Source: Candidatus Onstottus frigus (GTDB taxonomy: Bacteria; Acidobacteriota; Blastocatellia; UBA7656). From it: 64,000 nt of DNA. The notes beneath the pieces were generated by a model, which searched no databases, was not told where the DNA came from, and saw nothing but the letters and a program-made list of their open reading frames with translations. A program made the translations under genes and the position numbers. This document shows, one piece after another, positions 4,381-60,520 of the stretch (positions are counted from its first letter, which is position 1; each line of letters starts with the position of its first letter). Location of the stretch: NCBI GenBank assembly GCA_038040445.1, contig JBBPIG010000002.1, positions 257,847-321,846 on the forward strand, written 5' to 3'.

Positions 4381-5349
4381 GTGATTAAGACGCTTGTGCT
4401 CAATCGTGAAACCAAAACTTTCACCAAAATTGATGATCCTGATGAAATCAATCAGCTCTGCGCAATACCATCCAATATTATTTGGGTAGATGTGGCTGAT
4501 CCGACAAGCGCCGATTTTGAAGAATTAGCTAAAGAATTTGGCTTTCATCCCCTGTCGATCGAGGACTGCCGCAACGAACATCAGCGCCCTAAAGTTGAAG
4601 AGTTCGAGGGCTACTACTTTATCGTTCTTTATGAAGCTGAATTGGTCCTGGAAAGACATCTGGAACTTCGCGAGTTGAATATTTTTCTAGGCAAGAACTA
4701 TTTAGTCACTGTTCATAGCCAGCCTATACGCACGTTGGAAACTGGTGAACGGCTCTGGCGGGGGTGGACGGATTTAGCTGAAAGAGGCACGGGTTTATTG
4801 GCCTATCTGCTCATAGACGCAATTGTGGATGATTATATGCCTCTGCTTGATGCGATTTCTGATCGAATGGATGAATTGGAGGATAAGATCTTCGTGGATT
4901 TTCAGGCAGAAGCATTGGAAGAGATTTTCCGCATAAAGAAAGATTTGCTCTTCCTGCGCCGGTCGGTCACGCCTTTGCGAGATGTGTTCAATACGCTGCT
5001 GCGTCGCGAACAGCAAATCTTTTCACGCGAGACTTACATCTACTTTCAGGATGTCTTCGATCATTTGATTCGCGTCGCTGACACCATTGATACTCTACGC
5101 GATTTGCTGGGAGCGACAATGGATGCCTACTTGTCGGTTTCAGGAAACCGAATGAATATGGTCATGAAAAGATTGACCTCGATTTCAGCTATTCTTATGT
5201 CGATCACGCTCATTGCCGGAATCTATGGGATGAACTTCGACTTTATGCCCGAACTGAAATGGAGATACGGCTATGTCGGCGCACTAGGCTCAATTCTAGC
5301 GGTTGGTGTTTCCCTTTATCTCTATTTCAGAAGGATCAAATGGCTATGA
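4381..5349 (+). CDS. corA: CorA-family Mg2+/Co2+ transporter
   Basis: C-terminal two TM helices with the diagnostic [11 protein letters not shown] (GMN) motif; GTG start; gene is ~42% GC versus ~60% flanks. Confidence 0.9.
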
Positions 5350-21561: not shown

Positions 21562-23277
21562 CTAGGTTCGCGCGAATATGTCTCGCTCTTCGCCAAGCTC
21601 GCGCGCGGCCGGTGTGATTATGGTCTTGCCGTTGATGTAGATCTTCTCGTGCGCCGCCATTGCGAGCTTCACATCCTCCTCACAGACGAAATCGTAGACT
21701 CGTCCGTTGCTCGCTCGATTCGTTGACGCCGGCGGCGCAGCTTGCGATGGCGCCTGTTGGTGCGGTCTCTCAAACGAAGTGCCGGCAGGGCTAGGAAGCT
21801 GCGACAGCGGTTGCGCGGGTGGCTGAACACGGCGTTCGGCCAGGAACCGATCTACAAGCGCGGCAATTTCGGCGCGATCGACCGTCGCCGCCGGCCGCGC
21901 TACTGGCCGCGCCGGCGCGGCTGCGTGATTGATCGGCTTCGTCTCGAACGCGATGCGTTTTATGTCTAGGAGATGGCGCGGCGAGATGTTGTCCGAGGTA
22001 ACGTTCCCTCCCCACGATCCGCACCCAAGCGTCATCGACGGCTCGAGGTCGGTTGTGAAGCCAATCGCTCCGTGCGTCGAAGGGCTGTTGACCACAACTC
22101 GCGACGCGGGCATGCGAATACCGTATTCGCGAGCGGCATCGCGGCTCTCGGTGTGGATCGAAGCGGTGTGACCCATGCCTCCGTATCTGAGTATCTGAGC
22201 GCATCGTTCGCAGCCCTGTTCGAAACTATCAACCACGTAGTAAGCAAGTATCGGCGAGAGCTTCTCCATCGACAGCGGATGATCGCGCCCCACGCCGGAA
22301 AGCTCGCAGATCAGCACGCGAGTTCCGTCGGGTATCGTGAGCCCGGCCATCTCAGCAATAACCTTCGGGCTCTTGCCGACAATCTTCGGATTGAGTGTGT
22401 TAGTGGCCGTCGCGACGACCCGCGTCAATGCGTCCTGTTGTTCCTTGCCCAGGAAGTAAGCGCCCTCGGCAAGCAGCCGCTCTCGCACGTGCGAGTCGAC
22501 TGCCCGCTCGACGACGATCGCTTGCTCTGACGAGCAGATGGTCCCGTTGTCGAAACACTTGCCGGTAAGAATATCGCGCACAGCTTTCGAGACATTGGCT
22601 GAGCGCTCGATCATCGCCGGGACGTTGCCCGGCCCGACGCCGAAGGCAGGCTTGCCGGAAGAGTACGCCGCGCGCACCAGGCCTATTCCGCCCGTTGCAA
22701 GTATCACCGCGGTTCGCTTGTGCTTCATCAGCTCCTGTGTGCCTTCGATCGTCGCTACGGTCATGCATCCGATCGCGCCTGCGGGCAAGCCGGCTGCTTC
22801 CCCCGCTTCGCGCATCACCCGCGCTGTCTCGTTGATGCAGTTGGTAGCCGACGGATGCGGGCTCAACACCACTGCGTCGCGAGCCTTGATGGCGATCAGG
22901 ATTTTGAAGATGGCAGTGGAGGTCGGATTGGTCGAAGGAATTATCGCGGCTACCACGCCCCGCGGTGAAGCGACTTCGATTATGCTGTCGGTCTGGCGAA
23001 CGACGCCGACGGTACGCATCGGCTTGATAAAGTTATAAACCTGTTCGGCTGAGAATCGATTCTTGCTGGCCTTATCTGCCGCTGAACCGTAGCCAGTTTC
23101 CAGGTGGGCCATCTCGCCGAGGCGGTAGGCGTCTTCCAGTGCTACGCGGGCCATCGCGCCCACGATCTCGTCAACTTTCTCTTGTGCGAACGCGCCTAGT
23201 GTCTTTTGTGCTTCGTGCGCTCGTTCGACAAGCTCTCGCGCCTGCTCGATGGATTTCAGGTCCTTGTCGCTGCTCAT
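21562..23277 (-). CDS. CoA-acylating aldehyde dehydrogenase (PduP/EutE family) with ~120-aa C-terminal extension
   Basis: Core matches PduP/EutE throughout ([10 protein letters not shown]…; catalytic Cys in [11 protein letters not shown]); C-terminus has amphipathic helix [18 protein letters not shown], Pro/Gln-rich linker, and conserved ~40-aa tail [38 protein letters not shown]. Confidence 0.85.
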
Positions 23278-23296
23278 GACAACTGCTCAATCAAAG

Positions 23297-23350
23297 AGTC
23301 CGTAGTCCGTCCGTAAGTGTGCAGCCGGCAAATTGCTACGGACTACGGAT
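23297..23350. repeat. REP-like palindromic element, second copy (AGTCCGTAGTCCGTCCGTAAG … CTACGGACTACGGAT)
   Basis: Same arms as element at 11238-11320; lies between BMC-H and aldDH genes. Confidence 0.55.
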
Positions 23351-23353
23351 TTC

Positions 23354-23749
23354 CTATTTAGCTCGCTCTTTCGAAGGGGTAGGAGAAGACAGCGAGCGCT
23401 TGCCGTCCTCTTGCGCGCCAGCCGTCAACTGGCCGCGGGCTTCTCCGCCGAGTTGCGCACCAGGGTTGACGATCCCACTCGATTCCAACACTTGCTCGAG
23501 CTCCTTATGGGGACGCGGTATTACATGAACGCTGACCAACTCGCCGACGCGACGGGCCGCAGCCGCTCCCGCGTCGGTCGCCGCCTTTACAGCGCCGACG
23601 TCGCCGCGAACCAACACGGTCACGTAGCCGGCCCCGATGTACTCGCGGCCAACAAGTACGACGTTGGCGGCTTTGACCATTGCGTCAGCGGCCTCCACTG
23701 CTCCCACGAATCCTTTGGTCTCGATCATTCCTAGTGCTTCGGTATTCAT
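23354..23749 (-). CDS. Bacterial microcompartment shell protein BMC-H (PduA/CcmK type) with ~45-aa C-terminal tail
   Basis: [30 protein letters not shown]…[39 protein letters not shown]: near-canonical Pfam00936 sequence. Confidence 0.9.
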
Positions 23750-24117: not shown

Positions 24118-25056
24118 ATGCCGACACTGGGCGAAGAACTGAGACACAAGCGGGAACAGCGCGGTATCACGCTTGCTGAAATAGCGGAAGCGACCCGGAT
24201 CGGCACGCGCTTTCTGAAAGCCATCGAGACGGACAATTTCTCCATCCTTCCAGGCGGAATCTTCACCCGCTCCTTCATCCGAGCATATGCCAAACACGTC
24301 GGCATGAACGAAGACGAAGCGATAGGATTGTATCTCGAACAGGTCGCGGGCCCGACCATTGAGCAACAACAACCAGCAGATCAACCCAACATTCAGACCC
24401 CGCCGGCGGAGAAGATAACCAAGCTGGCGCCCACTTCATCCGGTATCGCCAGACCGGCAGCGCCCGTTGCCGCGAGTTCACGCCGCTTCGAGCCGGTCAC
24501 CTTTCGTCAGTCGCCTGCCCGCACAAGCTGGCCGACGATCGTGATCGGCGCGGGAATTGTGATTTTCATCGTGATCATTGTGATCGCTCTGGTTAAGCAG
24601 CTCAATCAAGGGGGAGGTGAAACCGAATCGCAAGCCACTTCTTCTGAGCAAAAGAATGCGCCTTCGAAGCAAGCTCCTCAAACGGGGAAACAGCCGGCGG
24701 CTCAACCCGGCTCGCGCTCGTCCGGTGAGCCTGCTTCCCCGCCGCCCGCGGAAACGTCTTCGCCTCCGGCATCGGCGCCGGCTGGCGAGCCGCTCCTCGT
24801 CAAGATCGAAGCAGCTACCGGCGATAGTTGGGTCAAATACCAGGTCGATGACGCCAAGCCGACTACTCTGGTATTGAAACGGGGCCAGTCCCAAGACCTT
24901 CCTCCGGCCCAAAGCCAGGTCACGCTGAACTACGGCGACCGGACTACGCTCAAGCTAAAGATCAACAACCGCGATGCCAACTTCCCTGCCGACACCCCAA
25001 AATTCGCTTCGCAGGTGGTCATCTCCAGGAACAATTTCCGAACGTTCTTTCAATAG
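24118..25056 (+). CDS. RodZ-like membrane protein (HTH_XRE N-domain, single TM, DUF4115-like C-domain)
   Basis: LRHKREQRGITLAEIAEATRIGTRFLKAIE HTH; TM WPTIVIGAGIVIFIVIIVIALV; Pro/Ala-rich linker; C-terminal beta domain. Confidence 0.65.
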   Translation: MPTLGEELRHKREQRGITLAEIAEATRIGTRFLKAIETDNFSILPGGIFTRSFIRAYAKHVGMNEDEAIGLYLEQVAGPTIEQQQPADQPNIQTPPAEKITKLAPTSSGIARPAAPVAASSRRFEPVTFRQSPARTSWPTIVIGAGIVIFIVIIVIALVKQLNQGGGETESQATSSEQKNAPSKQAPQTGKQPAAQPGSRSSGEPASPPPAETSSPPASAPAGEPLLVKIEAATGDSWVKYQVDDAKPTTLVLKRGQSQDLPPAQSQVTLNYGDRTTLKLKINNRDANFPADTPKFASQVVISRNNFRTFFQ

Positions 25057-25142
25057 AACGCGCCGCGAGATCCTACCGTCCCGAAGAATCTTCAGTGTCT
25101 CAAAACACCCGCCTCTATTATGGACGAAAGTGGAGATTCTTT

Positions 25143-26600
25143 TCAGTGTCGGAGTTTTTCTACCCAGCTCTTAACTAACTGAGGGATCGAATCAGCGGCG
25201 GCAGAATCAAAAGCGCGACCGCCCTCAGCGAAATGTGGCGCGTAAATACCATATATGTTTGACCAATCTCTCAGGCTATCAGCCGATCCACCCTCCACCA
25301 AGAGAAGGACAGGTTTGCTTTGCCCGTGGAAGAATCCAGCTTCATATGGAAGATTCTTACCCAGCACGTCGGACCCACTTAGACCTACGACAAGAACGAT
25401 AGCAGCGTCGGCGATCCACATTTTCGCTGAGACTTCATTAAAAATCAGGACCGGGGCCTCTGGCTCTCGTTCGGGGGACGCCTCCAGCGCCATGCATCCG
25501 TTAGCAACCAGGTTGTCGCGAACGCTGCGCGCAATTTGCTCGGCACGAGAGTCGCTAGTAAACCGACGGGAGACAAAGATTGGGATCTGGCCGTCCGGTA
25601 CGCGTTTCTGTTCATGCCGCACCTGGTAGAGAATGTTCTTCGGAACATGGGCAACGACTGCATCGGGAGTACGAGGGTAAACCGAATCAACGCCAGCTAT
25701 TCCATCGTTCATGTTCACTTTTATCAAATACTCTGGCGGAAGGTCGAGAAGGTCAGTTTCTACTCCTTCAAAAATACCATCACTGTTGCTCCCACCCTTC
25801 GGCTCACAGACGGCAACTAGGACAGCGTTACCCGCTGATGCTCCGCCGCGCCTTAAGAGCGTGGATAGTATGTTGAGATTACGGTCAACCAGAATTTGAG
25901 TTAGCACCTTCAAAGCTCCAGGCCGGTCGGAATGCTCGATAGATACGGTTTTCGCTCCCTTATAAGGAAATACGAAGCGGAGAAGGCGCTCATCCGTATC
26001 GGCTGAAACGACAGCTTTGGTCAAATCAATATTGTTGCTTAGACTCCCATAACGTCGGGCAATCTCTCTCTTCCAGCGGGTGCGCATCAGCCACCCGTGT
26101 TCAACCTCGCCTTTATCGGTCCACCTGACATGTCGCTGTGGAAAGTGCTCGATACGAACCCTTTCAAAACCCCGATCTGTGAGTGTCCGCCTTAAGGATT
26201 GCGATCGGACCGGGAAAGCTCTTCTGCCCTGCATAGGCTCACATATCAAGGTAATATCATGGAGCGCTCCTCCTTCCATTGTTATTGACTCGGCAAGCGC
26301 GATATTGAGATTGCTAACTACATCGACGGCACCAGCGACGACGCCGGGCTGATCCCGGCGACGACACTCAACGCGTATCATCCGATGACGCTGGAAAGGG
26401 TCGAGCACTGACACGATGAGATCACCAACCGGGCGTTCCCTTCCTTCAATTAACGATATGTAACATCGCGTATAGGATTGGAAGCCCAGAGGCGCGCGAT
26501 GCCACCAAGGCAGAGGTAAGTCAGTTCGATCCCGTGGCAGGCTTATTAGATCACCCAGAACTTGCATCTTGAACCTGTAAGTTAAGGGGCCAGCCAACAA
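25143..26600 (-). CDS. Tandem ACT domains fused to a C-terminal TIR-like (DUF1863/flavodoxin-fold) domain
   Basis: ACT1 RMIRVECRRRDQPGVVAGAVDVVSNLNIAL…; ACT2 TVSIEHSDRPGALKVLTQILVDRNLNILS…; C-terminus IPIFVSRRFTSDS… AKMWIADAAIVLVVGLSGSDV…YEAGFFHGQSKPVLLLV resembles a TIR-like betaA / alphaC-W…E…KPV pattern; ~50% GC; TTG start at 26600 or ATG at 26567. Confidence 0.5.
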   Translation of the reverse strand: MLAGPLTYRFKMQVLGDLISLPRDRTDLPLPWWHRAPLGFQSYTRCYISLIEGRERPVGDLIVSVLDPFQRHRMIRVECRRRDQPGVVAGAVDVVSNLNIALAESITMEGGALHDITLICEPMQGRRAFPVRSQSLRRTLTDRGFERVRIEHFPQRHVRWTDKGEVEHGWLMRTRWKREIARRYGSLSNNIDLTKAVVSADTDERLLRFVFPYKGAKTVSIEHSDRPGALKVLTQILVDRNLNILSTLLRRGGASAGNAVLVAVCEPKGGSNSDGIFEGVETDLLDLPPEYLIKVNMNDGIAGVDSVYPRTPDAVVAHVPKNILYQVRHEQKRVPDGQIPIFVSRRFTSDSRAEQIARSVRDNLVANGCMALEASPEREPEAPVLIFNEVSAKMWIADAAIVLVVGLSGSDVLGKNLPYEAGFFHGQSKPVLLLVEGGSADSLRDWSNIYGIYAPHFAEGGRAFDSAAADSIPQLVKSWVEKLRH

Positions 26601-27009
26601 ATTGTTGCTATTAGATCTGACTTCTGAACTATGGTGGCTCCTTCGAAGGCACTCGATACTACTATTTTGTCAAAAGGATGTCCACTACATAAGCACATTG
26701 AACTGAGGCTCCCGTTATACCAAGAGCAAGCATAGACTTCAGCCTATCCGAGATACTCCAGCCATCGACGTATTAAACTGACGTATTCAACCAATGTTAT
26801 TACTTAATCGGATTGCGAAGCCGCGTTAGCAGCGCCTACCAATCATGATCGGGGTTTGCGACATGACAACTACGTCACAAGTGGCAAGGAATGCGGTAGC
26901 GAGAGAGCCTGGAGGCTTAACACCGAAGGACGAAAACTTCATCAGTTAGCCCTCTCCGCAAGTTGTGGTCGTTGCGAGTCGCAGGAGAATGATTGCACCG
27001 TTTTTGATT

Positions 27010-28401
27010 TTACCGAACCTTTTCAAGTCGCCTTAGCGGCTTGCTCGCTACCGCACCTCGATCGCATACACCAGGAACTGCAAATCGCTGGCATAACTCA
27101 GCTACATCGGCAGCAACCATTTTGTGAATGGAAGGTCGATCGAGACTATTGCACACTCGGTCAATCAATCCCGCAATAACGGCCATTTCCGGCTCTTTCA
27201 TGCCCATCGACGTTACTGCCGGTGTGCCTATTCGAACACCACTAGTAACTGATGGCTTACGGGGATCGCCTGGCACCATATTGAAATTGGTGATGATCCC
27301 TGCCTGAGCGAGGGCTACCGCGAGATCTTTGCCTGAAAAGGGCCGATCCCGGAAATCCATGATCAGCATATGATTGTCTGTTCCACCACTCACTAACTGA
27401 TAGCCGAGGTTGATTAACTCAACACCTAGTGCGTTCGCATTGCGAACGACCTGCTCGCCATAGTCCCGAAACTCCCTAGTCGTAGCTTCCTCAAGGGCCA
27501 CGGCAAGAGCCGCAATAGTATTCATATGTGGGCCACCCTGAAGATGCGGAAAGACGGCCCTATCGATTCGCTTTGCGAGATTGAATTTTGAATCCGCGTG
27601 GTATTGCTCCTGATAACGATCCTCAAGGCGGCTTAGTATGAATCCGCCACGAGGACCTCGCATAGTCTTGTGAGCCGTGCTTGTAACCACATCACAAACA
27701 GGCACTGGATTTGGATGGGCACCAGCGACTATTAGCCCGCTTACGTGTGCGATATCAGCAACCAAATATGCGCTTACCTCACGCGCGATCTCGGCGGCGC
27801 GCTCATAGTCGAAGACGCGAGGATAAGCAGTGCCGCCAACCCAGATTAGCTTCGGCCGCTCACGGAGCGCCGTATCGCGCAGCACGTCGTAGTCAATCAT
27901 CCCGGTACGGTGATCAACTCCGTATGGGATACGCTGGTAGTCCGTTCCGGAGAAATTGACACCCCACCCGTGCGTTAGATGGCCGCCTTCCGGGACCGAC
28001 ATCCCCATCACCTTGTCTTCCCGCTTGAGAAGCGCGCGATATACTGCTTGATTCGCAGGCGAGCCGGAATAAGGCTGCACATTTGCGTGCTCCGCACCGA
28101 AAAGGTCCTTAAGCCGAGTCTTAGCGAGTTCTTCCAACTCGTCTACAATGTCGTTCCCTTCGTAGTAGCGCGCTCCCGGATAACCCTCAGAGTATTTATT
28201 GGTAAAGATTGATCCGGTCGCCTCAAGAACTGCTAGGGAAGCAAAGTTTTCGGAGGCAATTAGCTTGAGAGTTGTTAGCTCCTGTCTTTCCTGTCTCATC
28301 AACAATTCATAGACTGCAGGATCGACCTGTTTCAGGTGAGCCAGTGGACGACCGTTCGCCATGCCTACTATTCTCTTCGTTTTTGTCGCGGTGTCAATCA
28401 T
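27010..28401 (-). CDS. glyA: Serine hydroxymethyltransferase (island-borne copy) with short N- and C-terminal extensions
   Basis: Full SHMT homology including PLP-lysine region VVTSTAHKTMRGPRGG; AGGAGG 7 nt upstream of ATG 28401; ~52% GC. Confidence 0.9.
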   Translation of the reverse strand: MIDTATKTKRIVGMANGRPLAHLKQVDPAVYELLMRQERQELTTLKLIASENFASLAVLEATGSIFTNKYSEGYPGARYYEGNDIVDELEELAKTRLKDLFGAEHANVQPYSGSPANQAVYRALLKREDKVMGMSVPEGGHLTHGWGVNFSGTDYQRIPYGVDHRTGMIDYDVLRDTALRERPKLIWVGGTAYPRVFDYERAAEIAREVSAYLVADIAHVSGLIVAGAHPNPVPVCDVVTSTAHKTMRGPRGGFILSRLEDRYQEQYHADSKFNLAKRIDRAVFPHLQGGPHMNTIAALAVALEEATTREFRDYGEQVVRNANALGVELINLGYQLVSGGTDNHMLIMDFRDRPFSGKDLAVALAQAGIITNFNMVPGDPRKPSVTSGVRIGTPAVTSMGMKEPEMAVIAGLIDRVCNSLDRPSIHKMVAADVAELCQRFAVPGVCDRGAVASKPLRRLEKVR

Positions 28402-28818
28402 AAAACAGCCTCCTAGCTAGGATACCCTGCTGCCGCCAAATAATCCTCTAGAGACATTTAGCCGTCAACTCCGCAGCGGAAAAACCACAACGGGAACTCT
28501 GTCACACGCTGCATTGCGGTTTCCGTCATCTCTTTGGATGTCGCAGACTAGCACTTGCAAAGACTGCTGACAAGGGCCAACTTTTGGGGGCTTCAAGGCA
28601 ATGCACTGTTCTGAGACCCGCTGCTTACGCGAAGTGTTCCACGACCACCGCGGTTCAGACACGAGTCCACAGCGCGGCTGTTACATCTCTAATATCAAGC
28701 GATCCCAACCAATCCTCGTGCGCACCACTCCCTTGCCGTCTCGAAAACACTCAGCACGCTGAATTCCAGCCTACACCGTTTCGAGGCGCGCTCGCCGTGA
28801 TCGCTGTCACCCATAAAT

Positions 28819-29103
28819 GTGATCGCTGACACGTTTTCTCGCGAGCAAATGCCCTTCGCACTTTTCTTGAGTTCCAAGGGGTTGGATTCAAAGCAAACTT
28901 CTGGCATGGTTAAAAAGAGAGCGCGCGCTGGACTAGACACCGTCACCATTGCTTTTGCAAACCCTCAAGCAGTGTTGGAGCAAACATTGATCGTCCGCAA
29001 TCACCCGGAAACTCTTCGCGCCGGTCTTTTGTTTACGGGATACGGTCAGTGTGACGCCGAGCGTGTCCGCGAATTGTTGGAGGATCCTGTGACACTTAAC
29101 TGA
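28819..29103 (+). CDS. Possible small ORF immediately upstream of the NDT-like gene
   Basis: 94-codon ORF ending 23 nt before the next start; no homology recognised. Confidence 0.2.
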   Translation: MIADTFSREQMPFALFLSSKGLDSKQTSGMVKKRARAGLDTVTIAFANPQAVLEQTLIVRNHPETLRAGLLFTGYGQCDAERVRELLEDPVTLN

Positions 29104-29126
29104 CTTTGATGACAAGGAGCACTAGA

Positions 29127-30068
29127 ATGGACTCAAGCAAAACTACGCCAGGACACACTACCAACGGCGAGGAGTGCTTTGTGGTTATGCCGGTACGTGA
29201 TCCTGACGGCTACGCACCGGGACATTTTAAGCATGTGTTCGATGATATATTCGCACCCGCTTGTGACAAGGCTGGGTTTCGACCGATTCGCGCAGACCAG
29301 GTTCGAGCGACAAATCTCATACACCTGGACATTTTGCAAAAGCTAATCGAATCACCAATGGCGTTATGTGACTTAAGCAGTCGGAATCCAAACGTACTCT
29401 TCGAGTTGGGGCTCCGACAGGCTTTTGACCAACCAGTAGTCCTGGTTCGGGAAATTGGCACAGATGACATTTTTGATATCGGTCCGCTTCGATATACCGA
29501 GTATCACAAAGAGCGTATTTACCATGAGGTACTTGAAGATCGGGAGAAGATCGCAATTGCGATAGGCGCCACGCGCGAAGCATTCGAGAGTGGGCAAGGA
29601 GTCAACTCAATCATCAGATTACTGTCGCTCAGTCAACCCGCGAGCTTGGCCGATTTGCAAGAAGCTGACAGGGATCCCCTTCTCCAAATAATACGCGCTG
29701 AAATGAGTGAATTGAGATCTGAGTTTAAGGCTGCCTTGAGAATATCTGATGCTTCGCAGCTTGCGTGGGTCGCACGCTCGCTTCGAATCAACGAGGCAGT
29801 TGAGGAGATTGCTCGTCGCCAATTGGATAAACTTCAACAGGACTTATCAATTTCAGCGTCACTCGATTCTGAACCCGGGCCTTGGGCAGAGAGGAGAAGG
29901 AAGAAATGGGAATTGATTAAAGACGGGATAGGACTTTTAACGACCATGAGGCGAGCCGTAGGAGAAGAGTCAGACCTACTTTCGTCAATCAGCGCTTTAG
30001 CGAAGCGTTACAACGATGCCGAAACAGAGTACCTTGATGAAGAGATTGAAAACATAAACCCGAGTTGA
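29127..30068 (+). CDS. Nucleoside-2-deoxyribosyltransferase-like / TIR-like (flavodoxin-fold, SLOG-type) N-domain fused to a ~190-aa coiled-coil region
   Basis: AAGGAG 8 nt upstream of ATG 29127; ECFVVMPV…ALCDLSSRNPNVLFELGLRQAFDQPVVLV ('MP' + 'NPNVxFELG…PV' motif); rest is heptad-rich helical; ~49% GC. Confidence 0.5.
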   Translation: MDSSKTTPGHTTNGEECFVVMPVRDPDGYAPGHFKHVFDDIFAPACDKAGFRPIRADQVRATNLIHLDILQKLIESPMALCDLSSRNPNVLFELGLRQAFDQPVVLVREIGTDDIFDIGPLRYTEYHKERIYHEVLEDREKIAIAIGATREAFESGQGVNSIIRLLSLSQPASLADLQEADRDPLLQIIRAEMSELRSEFKAALRISDASQLAWVARSLRINEAVEEIARRQLDKLQQDLSISASLDSEPGPWAERRRKKWELIKDGIGLLTTMRRAVGEESDLLSSISALAKRYNDAETEYLDEEIENINPS

Positions 30069-30133
30069 GCCACTGAGCAATCTTACCTCACCAGGTTGCA
30101 TTCGGTTATACTGCAGGGCCTACGATTTGGCTA

Positions 30134-32170
30134 ATGGAAGAAGTATTCGGCCCGGGCGGATTAATCGCCCAACATCATCCCAACTACGAATACCGGCCCG
30201 GCCAGGTCGAGATGGCCGAGGCTGTCAACAATATCCTTAAGGACGGCGGCCTCGCCTTGATCGAAGCCGGAACCGGAACCGGCAAAACGCTCGCGTATCT
30301 GATACCCGCCATCGCAGCCGGACGCCGTGTGCTTGTGTCAACCGCGACAAAGAACCTCCAAGAGCAACTGCATAAAAAAGACGTTCCCTTTCTTCAACAG
30401 ATCATCCCGCGTGAGTTCAAAGTCACTTGCATGAAGGGCCGCTCGAATTACGTTTGCCTTCATCGGATGAAGAAGGCCGCCGGCACGCCGATGTTACAAG
30501 GACTCGAAGAGATCGATTACTTCGATCAGATTCGGAAATGGGCGGCCGAGAGCAAAACCGGCGACCGTGCCGAGCTAACCGACCTCCCCGAAGACCTTTC
30601 ATTCTGGCCCCAGATCGACGCGCGAGCCGATACGTGTCTCGGCCAGAAGTGTCCGGACTTTGACGCGTGCTTCATAACGCGAATGCGGCGCGAGGCGATG
30701 GAGGCCGACGTGGTGATCGTCAATCATCATCTCTTCTTCGCCGATCTCGCGCTGCGCGGCGGAGACTACGGCTCGGTGCTGCCCGACTACAATACGGTTA
30801 TCTTCGACGAGGCGCACGAGCTTGAAGACGTTGCCGCTTCTTACTTCGGCACAAGCGTTTCGAACTACCGCGTGAATGACCTCGTCCAAGATGCAAACAA
30901 ACTCGCGATCAAAGAGCCCGAACAGCAAGGAGAGTTGCTAAAGGCGCTGGCGAGATTGACTCAGCGATCGGATATGTTCTGGCTATCGTTTCGCGGAGGC
31001 AGCCTCGACGACGATTCGCCGGAAGGCGGCGGCAATGCTTCGCCATCCAGTGGCCGGTGGCAATCGAACAGAAACACATACCGGCCCCGCGGCTCTTCAC
31101 TGGATGGACGCTATCCGCTGAGCAGCTCGCGGTTCGCTCGAGTCGATCGCGAAGACAACCTTACACCGACCGCGACCGGTGAAGCTTACATCGCGCTCAG
31201 TAATGCCATCGATCGTCTGACAACCATGCTCGGCGTCGTGAAGGACCCGCCGGCGGAACTCGACAACATCGTTCGGCGAGCACAGAGCCTGAAGTTCGAT
31301 CTTGAGTTCGTCGTGAGCTGCGATCAGCCGGATTTCGTCTACTGGTGCGAAAAACGCGGCCGAGGCGTGTTCATCAATGCGACGCCGATCGACGTGTCCG
31401 GCATACTGGAAGAAAACCTCTTCGCCAAGTTGCAAACGGCCGTGCTGACTTCGGCAACGATGACCGCCGGTGCAGCCTTTGATTTCATCCGCGGCCGGCT
31501 CGGCATTCGACAAGCTCGTGAGTTGATCGTCGAATCTCATTTCGATTTTAAGAAGCAGGCAGTGCTTTATCTTCCCCGCGGCATGCCCGACCCGCGAAGC
31601 CGTGACTTCCTGGACGCGTCGGTGGACGAAATCGTTCGGATTCTGGAAGCGACTCGAGGGCGCGCGTTTGTGCTGTTCACGAGCCTGGCTTCGATGCGCG
31701 AGACGCACGAGCGAGTGCGCGACTTGATCGACTATCCAACTTTCATTCAAGGCCAGGGTTCAAAGACAGGTCTGCTCGATCGCTTTCGAAAGACTGAAGG
31801 GGCGGTGTTGTTTGCGACCTCTTCGTTCTGGCAAGGCGTTGACGTTCAGGGCGAAGCGCTCTCCTGCGTGATCATCTCGAAGCTGCCGTTCGCGGTCCCC
31901 AGTGATCCGGTCGTCGCCGCTCGCCAGAAATACATCGACGATCAAGGCGGCAATTCGTTTTATCAATACTCGGTGCCTCAAGCAGCGATCACCTTGAAGC
32001 AAGGTTTGGGCAGACTGATTCGTTCAACTAGCGACAAAGGTGTCCTTTCGATATTGGACCCGCGAGTGAAGACGAAGTCCTACGGAAGGGTTTTTCTCCA
32101 AAGCATTCCTCAATGCCGCGTGACTTCAAGCATCGAGGAAGCAGCGGCGATCTTCACGGATCATACCTAG
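30134..32170 (+). CDS. DinG/XPD (Rad3)-family ATP-dependent DNA helicase with FeS-cluster cysteines
   Basis: Walker A AGTGTGKT; four Cys (CMKGRSNYVC…C…CPDFDAC); DEAH box FDEAHE; helicase C-terminal motifs; ~70-aa low-complexity Ser/Gly/Arg insert. Confidence 0.85.
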   Translation: MEEVFGPGGLIAQHHPNYEYRPGQVEMAEAVNNILKDGGLALIEAGTGTGKTLAYLIPAIAAGRRVLVSTATKNLQEQLHKKDVPFLQQIIPREFKVTCMKGRSNYVCLHRMKKAAGTPMLQGLEEIDYFDQIRKWAAESKTGDRAELTDLPEDLSFWPQIDARADTCLGQKCPDFDACFITRMRREAMEADVVIVNHHLFFADLALRGGDYGSVLPDYNTVIFDEAHELEDVAASYFGTSVSNYRVNDLVQDANKLAIKEPEQQGELLKALARLTQRSDMFWLSFRGGSLDDDSPEGGGNASPSSGRWQSNRNTYRPRGSSLDGRYPLSSSRFARVDREDNLTPTATGEAYIALSNAIDRLTTMLGVVKDPPAELDNIVRRAQSLKFDLEFVVSCDQPDFVYWCEKRGRGVFINATPIDVSGILEENLFAKLQTAVLTSATMTAGAAFDFIRGRLGIRQARELIVESHFDFKKQAVLYLPRGMPDPRSRDFLDASVDEIVRILEATRGRAFVLFTSLASMRETHERVRDLIDYPTFIQGQGSKTGLLDRFRKTEGAVLFATSSFWQGVDVQGEALSCVIISKLPFAVPSDPVVAARQKYIDDQGGNSFYQYSVPQAAITLKQGLGRLIRSTSDKGVLSILDPRVKTKSYGRVFLQSIPQCRVTSSIEEAAAIFTDHT

Positions 32171-58033: not shown

Positions 58034-58654
58034 TTATAACGCTGTTTGCGGGCTGGCGCTGGGCAACGGCACGATCGCCGGGAACTCATAGACGAATTTG
58101 AGCAACATCTCTGTAAATACTAATATCTCCTTTGCATCCGTCTCCTCCATTAGGACTATCTCGTGAGTTGCCTCGTTTCCCTTTCTGCGGATGTGATCGA
58201 CCCAGTGTCGGCCATTCGGCGGGATATACCCATTCGCGGCGAGAAAGTCCACATACTCGATGAACCTCAAACCTTCTTGCGCCCCTTGTGCAACTGCAAT
58301 GTTCATCAGCAGTTTTCTACAGAGCAATACGGCTCCAGTGTAGCAGGTTACTCCAACACAACGTCTCGCTTCTTCGTAGACGGCTTCAACAGTTTCAGGT
58401 AGATGTTGTACTGGTGTGCCAAAGGCCGGTGAAGGAAGAACCGAGCCTGTCGGAGCAAAGAACGCCGGTCCGCGGCAGTTCGGACAGATGTAGACTCCTC
58501 CGGTCTGTGCGCCACTCGCGTCCTGGTGCTGACCAATCATGTAACCCCGATCCGATGAGACTGTGCGCGAGCAATAGCCGCAGATCCAGCTTTTGTTCTC
58601 AATATACTGAAGACTTTTATAGTTTGCAGAGCGCCCATCAATGAACGGTTCCAT
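58034..58654 (-). CDS. Zinc-ribbon + DUF4145 domain protein (paralog 1)
   Basis: CGYC…CPNC ribbon; C-terminal FLAANGYIPPNGRHWVDHIRRKGNEATHE = DUF4145 signature. Confidence 0.6.
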   Translation of the reverse strand: MEPFIDGRSANYKSLQYIENKSWICGYCSRTVSSDRGYMIGQHQDASGAQTGGVYICPNCRGPAFFAPTGSVLPSPAFGTPVQHLPETVEAVYEEARRCVGVTCYTGAVLLCRKLLMNIAVAQGAQEGLRFIEYVDFLAANGYIPPNGRHWVDHIRRKGNEATHEIVLMEETDAKEILVFTEMLLKFVYEFPAIVPLPSASPQTAL

Positions 58655-58777
58655 AAATGCTCCCCTGTTACACGGCTCGATAGCCGCCTTGATCTCGACG
58701 ACAGGCTGTCAGCTCACGGCCTGAGCAACCCGAGGTATCACGCGAACTGCGCTTCGCGACCTCCGTTGCATGCGCTT

Positions 58778-59620
58778 TCAGACCTCTTCGGCTGAGTCTA
58801 GCTTCTTCATTTCTACAATAAATTCTGCATATTCATCATAGCCCTCAAGATATTCATCGAGTTCCTCTTGATCAAAAATGTAAGTGTTCTTAACAGGACT
58901 GTCCACCAAGGGTACAATCGCGATCACTTTATAGCGCGAATTCCAGAATTGATCTAAAGTAGCTTTATCAATCGTGGTTGACTCGAAGGGCTTCAATAAG
59001 TACTCAGTCATGTAAAAGGAGAGTTGATAGAGTAAGGAGGAACCACTCGCGACAACAGATTCTGCATCTTCCCTCTGTATATCTTCTCCGTGAATAGCTC
59101 TGTTGCAGATTGAAATAACTTCGCGCGTTGAACGCGCAATCTCTGGTGGCAATATCTCTGTGTTAGAGAGTATATGCACGAGCTGGCCTGCGGTCTTAGA
59201 GCGGCGATCCCGATTATCTTTATGCGTTATCCGGTAGAGCTTGTTGAGGGCTTTCTCCAACTCGATCCTAAGCTTCGCCAGGGCAAGAATTGGATCAGTA
59301 TCAGCCAATGCCTTAATGCTTTTGGTGGTATTTTCGGCTTCTAGGACCTGCCTAGGAGCGTCGCTCTCAGACTCAGTGATCTGTGCAGAAACTTCCTCCC
59401 TTATTCTCTTTACTTCCTTCGGATCAATCTCCGCCTCGAAATCACCTATCTTGATCTTTGTGATAGCCGAAATGAAAGGGCTAAGAAGGATGACGAGTAG
59501 GAGAATTATGGAAGTGTTATCTATCTTGATCGGCTGAAATGACAGGGTGTGTGCTATTAACATAGAAAGCGCGAGCAACAATGTAATCCACCATAGATGA
59601 GATACCAGGAATCTTTTCAT
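58778..59620 (-). CDS. Membrane-anchored DUF4145 domain protein (paralog 2)
   Basis: Two N-terminal TM helices; QLVHILSNTEILPPEIARSTREVISICNRAIHGE DUF4145-like; ~42% GC. Confidence 0.5.
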   Translation of the reverse strand: MKRFLVSHLWWITLLLALSMLIAHTLSFQPIKIDNTSIILLLVILLSPFISAITKIKIGDFEAEIDPKEVKRIREEVSAQITESESDAPRQVLEAENTTKSIKALADTDPILALAKLRIELEKALNKLYRITHKDNRDRRSKTAGQLVHILSNTEILPPEIARSTREVISICNRAIHGEDIQREDAESVVASGSSLLYQLSFYMTEYLLKPFESTTIDKATLDQFWNSRYKVIAIVPLVDSPVKNTYIFDQEELDEYLEGYDEYAEFIVEMKKLDSAEEV

Positions 59621-59779
59621 AGCGCTAATTCACCTCTGGAGGTCCAACTTTGAATGGTCCCCGTAGTCATACCACGGCGATTGGGCCGTGTAATCAAGAT
59701 CGGATCAGACTCCGTTAAGGTCGCAGAACCATACGGCGACTAGGGAGCATGAGCAAGAATGACGAAGCAGCCCGACGTG

Positions 59780-59848
59780 TGATATATACACCACTTACTC
59801 CGAGCCGACCCGGATTATACGGCAACGTGCCGGATGTGCAACGCGAGC
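59780..59848. repeat. Conserved ~60-bp upstream leader, copy 1 (before paralog 2)
   Basis: ATATATACACCACTTACTCCGAGCCGACCCGGATTATACGGCAACGTGCCGGATGTGCAACG. Confidence 0.55.
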
Positions 59849-59875
59849 GATGTTTAGGCTGCCACATATCAGACT

Positions 59876-60520
59876 CTATTTTAAAGGGGGCTTGCTCGCA
59901 TCCGTAAGTTTCTGATTAAGCGCATCGCGCTTCTTCTGAAGTATTGCTGGCTGCACAAAATAAAAATCAAATAGCGCTTCGAGGGTATCGAGCAGCCACT
60001 CTGCTTCTTGTGGTTCAACCTCAATCACCGCGCCGGTATTAGTGCTCTTAATCGGATGAGCCGCAAAGTTTCCTACTACCCTTACTGCATCAACCGCGTC
60101 CGACAACTGCGAGGGTAGTTGTCTCGAGTCTATGACCTGCTGAATCTCATCGCTTAGATTTCCGTGCTTTATACCAGCCTTGTCTCGAAGAATCATCTGA
60201 AGACAACGGCGGCTCAATGCTGCACTTGCCTTCTCACTATCAGGCATAACCAGACAGGCTTCTGTGTAGTCCGACGAGAGAGGCTCGGGCACCTCTGGCG
60301 CGACGGGTGAACGAGTTGAGGCCTTGGGATAAATCCTAATTTGTAAAGTCCGTACATTATGACCAGCTTGTAGAGTGTATACAACAAGTTCTATAGTCAA
60401 TTCGCGGCAGGAAGGGCAGAGCGTATGGCGTACATTCCAGTTACGTTTACCGTCCTGTTGAAGGTGGGGTTCAGCCCAGATGTCGTGAAATGCGACCGTA
60501 CAGTGGGGGCATCTTAGCAT
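59876..60520 (-). CDS. Zinc-ribbon + DUF4145 domain protein (paralog 3)
   Basis: CPHC…CPSC ribbon; C-terminal VIDSRQLPSQLSDAVDAVRVVGNFAAHP DUF4145-like. Confidence 0.6.
   Translation of the reverse strand: MLRCPHCTVAFHDIWAEPHLQQDGKRNWNVRHTLCPSCRELTIELVVYTLQAGHNVRTLQIRIYPKASTRSPVAPEVPEPLSSDYTEACLVMPDSEKASAALSRRCLQMILRDKAGIKHGNLSDEIQQVIDSRQLPSQLSDAVDAVRVVGNFAAHPIKSTNTGAVIEVEPQEAEWLLDTLEALFDFYFVQPAILQKKRDALNQKLTDASKPPLK

Follow-up and report, generated by a model that had tools for sequence, protein, structure and literature searches.

A low-GC patch of three foreign-type genes in an acidobacterial genome, among them a putative ACT-gated TIR/NDT-like protein

Genes and composition of the low-GC stretch

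The window, meaning the whole 64-kb stretch of DNA analysed, contains three genes at positions 25100-30100, bordered by genes for a RodZ-like protein and a DinG/XPD-family helicase. The sequence-only reading of this DNA had given the same three open reading frames, strands and domain contents. The features are listed below.

24118..25056, + strand: RodZ-like gene, left border, context only (Pfam HTH_25 and RodZ_C; GC3 0.65)
25143..26567, - strand: gene A, 474 aa, with a conserved N-terminal domain followed by a pair of ACT domains and, last, an NDT/TIR-like domain
25149..25586, - strand: NDT/TIR-like domain of A; putative catalytic Glu codon 25341-25343, motif N-L-P-Y-E-A-G-F
25707..25952, - strand: ACT domain 2 of A (Pfam ACT, 28.0 bits, cut-off 27)
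26145..26378, - strand: ACT domain 1 of A, βαββαβ topology in the model
26409..26567, - strand: N-terminal domain of A (MQVLGD..LPLPWWHRAPLG..), the best-conserved region of the A family
26568..27009: A-SHMT spacer, 442 bp, 46.8% GC, not conserved in relatives
27010..28401, - strand: serine hydroxymethyltransferase gene (SHMT, glyA-type), 463 aa (PF00464, 493.8 bits)
28402..29126: SHMT/C divergent intergenic region, 725 bp, without a conserved element
29127..30068, + strand: gene C, 313 aa, NDT/TIR-like head and long helical stalk; start ATG 29127 with an AAGGAG site
29169..29585, + strand: NDT/TIR-like head of C; invariant Glu codon 29403-29405, motif N-V-L-F-E-L-G
29646..30056, + strand: helical stalk of C, hypervariable across the family
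30134..32170, + strand: DinG/XPD-family helicase gene of native composition (Pfam Helicase_C_2, DEAD and DEAD_2; GC3 0.67)

The claim of a low-GC island is borne out: at 51.4%, against 55.8% for the whole window, positions 25100-30100 have the lowest GC among all 5-kb windows (mean 55.7%, sd 1.9%). The RodZ-like and DinG flanks, said to lie near 60%, were measured at 57-58%. While the dip in total GC is only ~2.2 sd, the contrast is stronger per gene, with GC3 at 0.51 (A), 0.52 (SHMT) and 0.48 (C), compared with 0.66 for the median gene of the window (sd 0.08). The three genes form the longest low-GC3 run in the window, and the related contigs L098 and L106 show this contrast too. Because further low-GC3 genes occur in the window (CorA, 4381-5349; three DUF4145 genes, 58034-60520), the dip is notable, not unique.

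These measurements support a foreign-like composition for A, SHMT and C. That the dip is ordinary variation, in native and vertically inherited genes that nothing special links, is extremely improbable. The modest total-GC dip, the other low-GC3 genes such as CorA and the stable arrangement in relatives would fit such an explanation, but the length of the run does not, nor do the family-wide low GC3 of A and C in many hosts, their patchy occurrence across phyla and the nearest named relatives of the SHMT, which lie in other phyla.

The genes had also been called tightly arranged. The gaps are in fact 442 bp between A and SHMT and 725 bp between the divergent SHMT and C, and the only tight spacing is the 65 bp separating C from DinG. 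A leader of ~700 bp upstream of SHMT is indeed present as the 725-bp gap, but it is not conserved: the leaders in relatives measure ~290 and ~460 bp, blastn against L098 and L106 found no match, and neither an Rfam match nor a conserved small ORF was found in the region. The near-palindrome GTGATCGCTG(T/A)CAC occurs in it twice, at 28797-28832.

One module or separate genes

The trio was found in three related Acidobacteriota contigs only (the window, L098/L099 and L106), in the order A-SHMT-C-DinG. The sequence-only reading had taken A, SHMT and C for a candidate metabolite-sensing signalling or defence cassette. In it one TIR-like protein might, for example, make a signal to which the other responds, with the SHMT supplying or consuming the sensed metabolite. 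The retained gene order, the low GC3 common to all three genes and the membership of A and C, on either side of the SHMT, in one fold superfamily speak for such a cassette. Within that superfamily, however, profile comparison shows no close kinship between the two proteins (hhalign probability 5.6%).

Synteny largely refutes the cassette, which we consider very improbable. The trio is confined to one lineage, SHMT, A or DinG was found near C in 0 of 80 C-family loci, and partner genes were likewise absent from the ~14 other A lineages. The spacers are long and unconserved, relative L003 has glyA, A and DinG without C, and in L098 a remote homologue stands in for A while SHMT and C stay. A search with PADLOC matched no known system at the locus. 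The biology of C is distinct and tied to mobile and defence islands, so that its membership in a cassette is not supported.

Domain structure of gene A

The start of A is placed at ATG 26567, since 55 aligned homologues all open with MQVLGD; the TTG at 26600, chosen by the ORF tool and by the sequence-only reading, was rejected for the same reason. The NCBI record covers only the last 314 aa. The AF2 model has a pLDDT of 88.8.

In the N-terminal domain, P18, W21, W22, H23, R24, A25, L27 and G28 are invariant across 15 loci. The domain had no match in Pfam or, by sequence, in the PDB, and an hhalign comparison with SpoVT/AbrB was negative.

Both ACT domains proposed for A hold, the second by its Pfam match and the first by its modelled topology and by fold matches to the tandem-ACT proteins SerB2, 1u8s, 2nyi and PurU. 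In ACT domain 2, H223 and N243 are invariant and D225 is near-invariant (485-aa numbering). The ACT domains of PGDH are among the best PDB matches of the A-family profile to this domain, although weak ones (E 0.004-0.08); H-x-D-x-P-G and N-I-L-S of A align with H-E-N-R-P-G and N-I-A-A of PGDH, and the invariant H/D/N fall on the H-E-N...N positions, which, going by the E. coli PGDH structure, are probably residues of the serine site. The best full-length Foldseek match of A is SerB2, which has an ACT-ACT module plus a catalytic domain and whose structure has serine at the ACT.

The assignment of TIR/NDT-like domains to A and C stands as to fold and catalytic-position Glu, the latter kept in 50 of 56 A sequences (89%), and the nearest structures are the enzymes MilB, NDT and Rcl. 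It falls short at the level of Pfam: no Pfam TIR model detects the window's A or C, and the PF05014 matches seen in relatives lie below the cut-off. No description of an ACT-TIR architecture was found in the searchable literature, in agreement with the earlier claim that it is undescribed.

Distribution and neighbours of the A family

The A family comprises ~150-340 clusters (152 at E<=1e-30), patchily distributed over at least six phyla, and has no universal partner gene. Its effector can be exchanged: the sensor module (profile positions 1 to ~300) is fused to a Pfam TIR_2 domain in P0369 (45.3 bits, cut-off 28) and joined to a CAP12/Pycsar-TIR-like domain in P0343.

Four arrangements place A beside a serine or glycine gene: glyA then A (the window and L106), glyA, A, one further gene and DinG without C (L003), A then serA (L111), and serA then A (L112). 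By our estimate, 4 of ~17 A lineages beside glyA or serA far exceeds chance (~1e-3 per locus). The A genes concerned belong to two clades only ~41% identical to each other. They may all come from related soil Acidobacteriota, so that their independence is only partial. In about 13 of the ~17 lineages no Ser/Gly gene lies 10 kb or less from A, and P0001 (65%), the closest homologue outside the clade, lacks an SHMT. For A, the proposal of metabolite sensing is genuinely strengthened by the four arrangements and the weak ACT2/PGDH alignment; for a three-gene module it is not supported.

In other surroundings A resembles a defence gene, as in L109, where it lies amid IS elements, the restriction genes Mrr and MmeI, and DUF3800; in L009 it adjoins an IS110-type transposase. 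The very divergent homologue that fills the slot of A in L098, with SHMT and C unmoved, looks like conflict-type turnover. Together with the patchy distribution, a GC3 below that of the neighbours in 9 of 11 loci, the exchange of the effector for TIR_2 and the precedent of DUF4062/Swarozyc for single-protein TIR-like defence, these settings are consistent with A and C being plain single-gene abortive-infection proteins. Both would be TIR-like NADases, the ACT of A would sense a phage-induced metabolite change, and the adjacency to glyA/serA would reflect hitch-hiking or a hotspot coincidence. We regard this explanation as unlikely. Chance would very rarely produce four distinct glyA/serA adjacencies, the neighbours of A are mostly housekeeping genes, A homologues were found in none of 50,697 phage and 72,556 plasmid records, and searches of PHROG and PADLOC gave no match to A.

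The serine hydroxymethyltransferase

Sequence comparison indicates a canonical, catalytically intact SHMT, with full-length canonical matches (NCBIfam PRK00011, 527 bits, cut-off 335) and the PLP-Lys motif TSTAHKTMRGPRGG. The strong ribosome-binding site attributed to it is present, an AGGAGG 7 nt upstream of ATG 28401. Its nearest named relatives, from Mesorhizobium and Planctomycetota, are 66-74% identical, and it shares only 47.5% identity with its syntenic counterpart in L003. It is the one SHMT in the 64 kb, and it looks more like a foreign-type enzyme in the slot where L003 has a glyA of native composition.

Gene C and its surroundings

C belongs to a large unannotated family (>1050 homologues); it has no Pfam or NCBIfam match and hits phrog_3634 with E 7e-23. 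The identity of 60-70% among homologues is limited to the head, which has 40 invariant columns, the catalytic-position Glu among them. In the AF2 model (pLDDT 81) the stalk consists of helices 191-255, 260-285 and 292-317. Some homologues end in wHTH domains or SSB-like D-D-I-P-F tails.

Within two genes to either side of C, 30 loci hold, among others, 8 phage-type integrases, AbiH, AbiE, bSEFIR, a restriction enzyme, AbiU and PD-Lambda-2, and one homologue lies amid CAP12-TIR, AAA_15/21, Shedu SduA_C and CdiI genes. Relatives occur in 50 phage and 69 plasmid records, and the GC3 of C is below that of its neighbours in 30 of 33 loci. The DinG gene is context only, lying outside the conserved neighbourhood of the family (no DinG at the 80 loci). 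Since C is directly upstream of DinG in three relatives (gap 47-65 bp in this lineage) and a phage homologue precedes a DNA helicase gene, a role in DNA replication is possible.

These helicase neighbours, and the wHTH and SSB-like ends, would also suit TIR/NDT-like domains that are non-enzymatic, with C a scaffold or adaptor at replication forks and A regulating serine/one-carbon genes allosterically or transcriptionally. In A, the N-terminal domain would bind DNA or a partner enzyme, the ACT domains would sense the ligand and the TIR-like domain would serve as an oligomerisation scaffold. In animals, many TIR domains serve purely as scaffolds. No part of A is more conserved than the N-terminal domain, and its LP-x-P-WW-H-R-x-P-L-G-x(4)-T is, in our impression, loosely like AbrB/SpoVT looped-hinge motifs. 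We nevertheless hold this to be decidedly unlikely: that domain lacks a SpoVT (hhalign), PDB or Pfam match, the Glu at the catalytic position never varies in C and is kept by 89% of A sequences, the 40 invariant columns of the C head are typical of an active site, and the closest structures, MilB, NDT and Rcl, are enzymes.

Proposed roles of the three genes

The explanation that we favour, and to which we give about an even chance, is that the 5-kb stretch holds three genes of foreign composition, each working as a unit of its own and not as part of one system. A would be a stand-alone sensor-effector protein, whose tandem ACT module would bind a small amino acid (L-serine or glycine being the likeliest) and control a C-terminal domain of the TIR/NDT N-glycosidase class. 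From its fold and conserved Glu, this domain is predicted to cleave NAD+ or a nucleotide, and A may thus be an amino-acid-gated NAD+/nucleotide-cleaving enzyme. Its position just downstream of glyA here, and beside glyA or serA elsewhere, would then arise because A is functionally tied to serine/glycine metabolism.

The SHMT is probably a glyA-type enzyme, ordinary and active, from a Planctomycetota/Mesorhizobium-like clade, likely acquired horizontally, and may serve as the working glyA of the genome rather than as an additional copy. C would be a singleton unrelated to these two, mobile by horizontal transfer and inserted ahead of the native DinG gene. By analogy, it is most likely a one-protein anti-phage or conflict effector, in which the stalk would sense or oligomerise and the head would hydrolyse NAD+ or nucleotides.

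Comparison with known systems

Like A, the mycobacterial phosphoserine phosphatase SerB2 (ACT-ACT-HAD) and SerA/PGDH (a catalytic domain with a serine-binding ACT) carry an ACT module, tandem or terminal, on a Rossmann-like catalytic domain. As noted earlier, SerB2 is the best full-length Foldseek match of A, the PGDH ACT is among the best sequence matches of ACT2 with H/D(N)/N aligned, and A genes adjoin serA and glyA. Unlike these enzymes, A has a TIR/NDT-like catalytic domain instead of a HAD or dehydrogenase domain, an additional conserved N-terminal domain, a patchy, HGT-like distribution and a ligand that is predicted only.

The bacterial TIR sensor-effectors Thoeris ThsB, TIR-STING/CAP12, TIR-SAVED and SpbK share with the present proteins a catalytic-position Glu and a sensor fused to a TIR-class effector, and a true TIR_2 domain is found in P0369, a relative of A. 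Neither A nor C of the window, however, has a Pfam TIR match, the locus has no ThsA, CD-NTase or CRISPR partner, and an ACT sensor with TIR was not found described in the searchable literature.

To the NDT superfamily (NDT, Rcl/DNPH1 and the CMP hydrolase MilB) and the NDT-like effectors of type II retrons, A and C are linked by the sub-threshold PF05014 matches of their relatives and by the F/M-E-L-G core motif, which resembles the nucleophile motif of Lactobacillus NDT. They differ in scoring below Pfam cut-offs, in having extra sensor (A) or stalk (C) domains and in having no reverse transcriptase or ncRNA nearby.

In PsyrTA/RqlHI, an NDT-like toxin is paired with a RecQ-family helicase antitoxin, and C likewise lies 47-65 bp upstream of a helicase gene. 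The helicase here, however, is of the DinG/XPD type, is native in composition and occurs in L003 without C; the C family has no recurrent helicase neighbour, and PADLOC gave no PsyrT match.

Swarozyc is a DUF4062 TIR-like NADase with a helical stalk (bioRxiv 10.64898/2026.05.01.722283). C and its homologues differ from it in having no Pfam DUF4062 match, and C is shorter and lacks the Swarozyc auxiliary domain. The two nevertheless share an N-terminal TIR-like head with a catalytic Glu (putative in C) near residue 100, followed by helical stalks (bioRxiv 10.64898/2026.05.01.722283), and both are single-gene units with defence-island neighbourhoods and a patchy, HGT-like distribution.

Composition and gene structure of the low-GC stretch

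The GC content of positions 25100-30100 is 51.4%, compared with 55.8% for the whole window, and is the minimum among all 5-kb windows (mean 55.7%, sd 1.9%). Three genes occupy this stretch, between two flanking genes:

24118-25056 (+), RodZ-like gene, left flank
25143-26567 (-), gene A, 474 aa: N-terminal domain, ACT1, ACT2 and NDT/TIR-like domain; catalytic-position Glu codon at 25341-25343
27010-28401 (-), glyA-type serine hydroxymethyltransferase (SHMT), 463 aa
29127-30068 (+), gene C, 313 aa: NDT/TIR-like head and helical stalk; Glu codon at 29403-29405
30134-32170 (+), DinG/XPD-family helicase gene, right flank

The contrast with the flanks is sharper in GC3 than in total GC: values of 0.51, 0.52 and 0.48 for A, SHMT and C stand against 0.65 and 0.67 for the RodZ-like and DinG-like genes and a window median of 0.66 (sd 0.08, from 44 ORFs of at least 150 aa). 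The low-GC island described in the sequence-only reading is therefore real, being both the minimum of the 5-kb windows and a GC3 drop shared by all three genes. These form the longest low-GC3 run in the window, though other low-GC3 genes are present. A CorA-type Mg2+ transporter gene (4381-5349, +), with 45% GC and a GC3 of 0.50 the lowest-GC gene of the window, lies amid surroundings of native composition, and three tandem paralogous DUF4145-domain genes (58034-60520, -; GC3 0.47-0.56) form a second compositionally foreign patch.

The original gene calls were correct in outline, and the starts of A and C were amended. Gene A begins at ATG 26567 (-), giving 474 aa, and all 55 of 55 aligned homologues begin MQVLGD; C begins at ATG 29127 (+), behind an AAGGAG site and where similarity to its relatives starts; and SHMT begins at ATG 28401 (-), behind an AGGAGG site. 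The NCBI record of the metagenome-assembled genome (AABO57_03380, P0002) annotates only the final 314 aa of A, while the 474-aa frame is intact; the N-terminal domain and first ACT missing from that call are conserved in all homologues. The description of the genes as tightly arranged did not hold, as the spacers measure 442 bp between A and SHMT and 725 bp between the divergent SHMT and C, with 65 bp between C and DinG.

Neither spacer contains a recognizable Rfam family, and upstream of SHMT none was found at the gathering threshold or at E<=1. A riboswitch or leader RNA at this position was rejected, given the missing Rfam match and a region not conserved in relatives. Small ORFs of the two spacers have homologues in none of the fetched comparison loci. 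The search for mobile-island borders found no tRNA in the window and no flanking direct repeats. Within the SHMT/C spacer, the near-palindrome GTGATCGCTG(T/A)CAC occurs twice at 28797-28832, with 22 bp between the copies, and could constitute an operator; relatives do not preserve the pair, as their spacer is different throughout. To the left of the RodZ-like gene, an aldehyde dehydrogenase with a long C-terminal extension adjoins a BMC-domain shell protein (21562-23749, -), apparently as part of a bacterial microcompartment locus, and the same pair precedes RodZ in the related locus L099.

Conservation of the three-gene arrangement

The sequence-only reading had proposed A, SHMT and C as a single metabolite-sensing module. 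Within the lineage of the window the three genes are indeed co-localized. In L098/L099, from a related Acidobacteriota genome, SHMT, C, DinG and RodZ are 90%, 81%, 76% and 62% identical to their window counterparts, and the order is RodZ, a further gene, an A-like gene, SHMT, C and DinG. Similarly, L106, whose SHMT is 80% identical, carries DinG, C, SHMT and A, the latter with an orthologous N-terminus. Outside this lineage the co-localization breaks down: the A-family loci have no neighbour common to all, and none of 80 metagenome loci of the C family contains SHMT, A, DinG or RodZ (0/80).

Even among the three relatives, the spacers are unconserved. Furthermore, the A slot of L098 (GCA_038040485.1, 5015-7984) is filled by a 553-aa remote homologue, which aligns with A over the N-terminal domain and both ACTs (hhalign probability 98.4%, 20% identity) and whose different TIR-like C-terminus does not align with that of A. 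This looks like a cassette replacement at a fixed position. The same locus has an extra gene for a 362-aa membrane-anchored protein.

The lineage-restricted synteny, the unconserved spacers and the exchanged A gene in L098 therefore fail to support a three-gene system, and the interpretation as an integrated cassette is likewise unsupported. Setting that idea aside averts a cassette-level experiment that would probably be misleading.

The SHMT gene

SHMT is an ordinary, canonical enzyme. It matches PF00464 with 493.8 bits over 399 of 399 model positions, NCBIfam PRK00011 with 527 bits (cut-off 335) and the Geobacillus SHMT with about 420 bits, and its PLP-binding lysine motif TSTAHKTMRGPRGG is intact and aligns with TTTHKTLRGPRGG of 2vmv. 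Outside its own clade, whose members are 90% and 80% identical to it, the closest relatives share 66-74% identity. Among them are the SHMTs of Mesorhizobium, Aminobacter and Bradyrhizobium, with metK adjoining and metE nearby (L104), and those of Planctomycetota, with native composition (L105). In Mesorhizobium sp. J8 (L104:8001-16996), SHMT is directly upstream of metK and near metE, in a stretch whose GC3 is below that of the adjacent thi genes and which looks like an acquired methyl-cycle cluster.

At the corresponding position of L003, a relative with the order glyA, A, a further gene and DinG, the SHMT is of native composition and only 47.5% identical to that of the window, compared with 55% for DinG. 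Together with the GC3 of 0.52, this divergence suggests that the window gene was acquired horizontally. The sequence-only reading called it an extra copy; the 64 kb contain this one SHMT, and the gene may have replaced the resident glyA instead of being added to it.

Assignment of A and C to the TIR/NDT class

The TIR/NDT calls for A and C stand at the level of fold, as follows from the domain analysis of both proteins: a flavodoxin-like βα fold superposable on TIR structures was found, as was an NDT-like fold. At the level of sequence the calls fail, since neither protein passes a TIR or NDT model. The Pfam models TIR, TIR_2, DUF1863 and CAP12-PCTIR_TIR match neither A nor C at E<=0.1, and the PADLOC "TIR effector" profile matches C weakly (E 9e-6). 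No window protein matches PF05014 (nucleoside 2-deoxyribosyltransferase); the best A relative, P0052, reaches 26 bits, under the cut-off of 28.8, and matches occur in 6 of 52 C homologues, the best with an E of merely 0.028. CAP12-TIR is likewise sub-threshold in the A relatives P0343 and P0052, and the TIR matches of P0369, P0343 and P0052 concern swapped or divergent domains. Direct homology between the domains of A and C was considered and rejected, as they align in register without significance (hhalign E 0.007, probability 5.6%).

Gene A: a putative amino-acid sensor coupled to a TIR/NDT-like domain

Pfam detects one ACT domain in A (PF01842, residues 218-255, 28.0 bits, cut-off 27), and a precomputed match to this family is present in most homologues. 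The AlphaFold model, built from 56 sequences (pLDDT 88.8), resolves four parts: a small N-terminal domain (12-64, 485-aa numbering), two βαββαβ ACT domains, and a C-terminal α/β domain. ACT1 comprises the elements E75-82, H87-94, E99-108, E113-121, H133-142 and E146-152, and ACT2 the elements E217-224, H229-239, E242-250, E258-267, H273-285 and E294-298. This tandem fold finds matches in SerB2, 1u8s, 2nyi, PurU and the AHAS small subunit. An AbrB/SpoVT identity for the N-terminal domain was rejected (hhalign against SpoVT, probability 0.1%; no PDB or Pfam match).

PGDH ACT domains are among the best PDB matches of the ACT2 profile, albeit weak ones (E 0.004-0.08). In this alignment the invariant His223, Asp225 and Asn243 of A fall on the H-E-N...N positions of PGDH, which we take to be the serine-contacting His344, Asn346 and Asn364 of the E. 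coli enzyme. The alignment thus offers a weak but coherent pointer to a serine-like ligand. In the C-terminal domain, the motif N-L-[AP]-H-E-x-G-F-[LM]-Q-G-Q-G-K-P contains a glutamate (Glu420; Glu409 in the 474-aa numbering) in 50 of 56 sequences, which, judged by motif position rather than by residue-level superposition, would sit where NDT/TIR enzymes have their catalytic glutamate.

A profile search of 1.84 billion representatives returned 152 A-family clusters at E<=1e-30, a number that rises to 343 when the threshold is relaxed to E<=1e-10. In one member, P0369, the N-terminal domain and both ACTs are fused to a true Pfam TIR_2 domain (45.3 bits, cut-off 28); in another, P0343, the sensor module is followed by a helical insert of ~150 aa and a CAP12-TIR-like/NDT-like domain. 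Through these exchanges of the C-terminus, TIR-class effectors are thus joined to the sensor module, and this speaks for an enzymatic output of the TIR type. Several further variants of 580-650 aa have C-termini with no Pfam match.

In 9 of 11 loci A has a lower GC3 than the genes around it, and transposases or restriction genes occur at some loci. Relatives of A were found in neither phage nor plasmid collections, and A has no PADLOC or PHROG match. Across 13 loci from species-representative genomes, spanning Acidobacteriota, Bacteroidota, Planctomycetota, Gemmatimonadota, Alpha- and Betaproteobacteria, and further metagenome loci, no neighbour is common to all. In addition, all-against-all ORF clustering around A (18 loci) and C (81 loci) returned no conserved partner genes, only antisense shadows and lineage-specific neighbours. 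The gene between A and DinG in L003, hyp195, was rejected as a relative of C (no tblastn or Pfam match).

The most striking feature of the neighbourhoods is the linkage of A to the serine-pathway genes glyA and serA in several lineages.

Adjacency of A to glyA and serA
glyA→A: window and L106; gap 442-500 bp
glyA→A→x→DinG: L003; gap 235 bp
A→serA (PGDH with ASB and ACT domains): L111; gap 111 bp
serA→A: L112; gap 106 bp

By our own estimate, glyA or serA would be either neighbour by chance with a frequency of ~1e-3 per locus; with 4 of ~17 lineages observed, chance is therefore extremely unlikely. The A genes concerned belong to two clades that are only ~41% identical to each other, with clades lacking such neighbours in between, and serA occurs at L111 and L112 and near none of the remaining A loci. 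The independence of these cases is only partial, because all may come from related soil bacteria.

In the mechanism that we consider most likely for A, an amino acid, probably serine or glycine, would bind at the ACT interfaces and thereby shift the TIR/NDT-like domain to another oligomeric or activity state; as its fold, conserved glutamate and the TIR_2 swap suggest, this domain would hydrolyse an N-glycosidic bond, either in NAD+ or in a nucleotide. A further-reaching possibility, which we put forward tentatively and to which we give clearly less than even weight, is that the A family comprises undescribed amino-acid-gated TIR/NDT-type enzymes, in which L-serine or glycine on the tandem ACT domains switches cleavage of NAD+ or a nucleotide on or off. 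Were A so gated, the recurrent glyA/serA adjacency would mark a genuine functional partnership, and serine and one-carbon status would be wired directly to NAD+ or nucleotide pools. Gene A could then be a metabolic checkpoint, or it could watch, as part of immunity, for phage hijacking of one-carbon metabolism. With about 150-340 clusters and confident structure models, the family is directly testable. What remains of interest is thus this undescribed family of ACT-TIR/NDT sensor-effectors recurring beside serine-pathway genes, along with the large, unannotated TIR/NDT-like family of C on mobile and defence islands.

Gene C: a single-gene defence candidate

The C family exceeds 1050 clusters, and C has no PDB homologue at the sequence level. 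While its stalk is hypervariable, the head retains 40 invariant columns in 52 sequences and 60-70% identity across phyla. The invariant positions include Glu100 (320-aa numbering), in N-V-L-F-E-L-G, a putative equivalent of the TIR/NDT catalytic glutamate by motif position, not by residue-level superposition.

Two genes per side were scanned at 30 loci (108 proteins). The neighbours include eight phage-type integrases, as well as AbiH (2), AbiEi/AbiEii, bSEFIR, a type II restriction enzyme, AbiU, PD-Lambda-2 and PDC-S01 (3). The genes around one homologue encode a CAP12-type TIR protein, an AAA_15/21 ATPase, CdiI and Shedu SduA_C, while another homologue has conjugative-element-type genes about it in Chitinophaga. 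Relatives of the head are present in phages (50 records; Staphylococcus, Streptococcus, Klebsiella, E. coli, Dorea) and on plasmids (69 records), phrog_3634 matches C with an E of 7e-23, and in 30 of 33 loci C has a lower GC3 than the genes around it (mean difference 0.17). This pattern fits a mobile conflict or defence protein encoded by a single gene. In the window, C appears to have been inserted just upstream of a native DinG gene, and L003 has DinG without C. The family, which is unannotated, numbers more than 1000 clusters and has a highly conserved head, occurs on integrase-bearing and defence islands, prophages and plasmids. It is a reasonable new candidate for single-gene defence, in which, by analogy and context, the variable stalk would sense or oligomerize and the conserved head would act as the hydrolase.

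Several features of individual homologues may be recorded here. Among 120 listed C homologues, six (P0098, P0100, P0101, P0102, P0116, P0172) end in E-E-D-F-D-D-I-P-F or V-D-D-I-P-F, copying the extreme C-terminus of bacterial SSB, the docking site for genome-maintenance proteins; P0130 and P0140 have a MarR-type winged-helix domain at the C-terminus instead. Escherichia phage vB_EcoM-689R2 (L107, 1458-2375) carries a C-like gene in its replication module, flanked by nuclease and DNA helicase genes, with a separate "TIR-like domain-containing protein" and a DNA polymerase a few genes away; C of the window is likewise directly upstream of a helicase, DinG. Distant head relatives on Rhizobium/Agrobacterium plasmids (matches H17, H18, H21-H30) are annotated "TRAFs-binding domain-containing protein", which hints at a link to the MAP3K/ASK1 N-terminal domain family.

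Comparison with known systems

A search with PADLOC-DB v2 identified no known anti-phage system: A and SHMT gave no match and C one weak effector-domain match, and the neighbours are RodZ, SHMT and DinG. The nearest described architectural analogue of C is Swarozyc, a portal-activated NADase with a DUF4062 TIR-like head, catalytic Glu97 and helical stalks (bioRxiv 10.64898/2026.05.01.722283). Unlike in Swarozyc, however, DUF4062 matches neither C nor any of 52 homologues among the families listed at E<=0.05. PsyrTA is an NDT-like toxin conserved beside a RecQ-type helicase, whereas the helicase of the window is of the DinG type. Neither DinG nor any other helicase recurs beside C in 80 loci; as the two genes adjoin in one lineage only, a PsyrTA-like pairing of C with DinG was rejected.

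Enzymes of the TIR and NDT-like kind play a central part in bacterial, plant and animal immunity. To our knowledge, the known triggers of the bacterial enzymes are phage proteins or signalling nucleotides. An ACT-gated TIR-class enzyme tied to glyA and serA would, if A proves to be one, represent a new input logic, leading from a primary metabolite to the cleavage of NAD+ or nucleotides.
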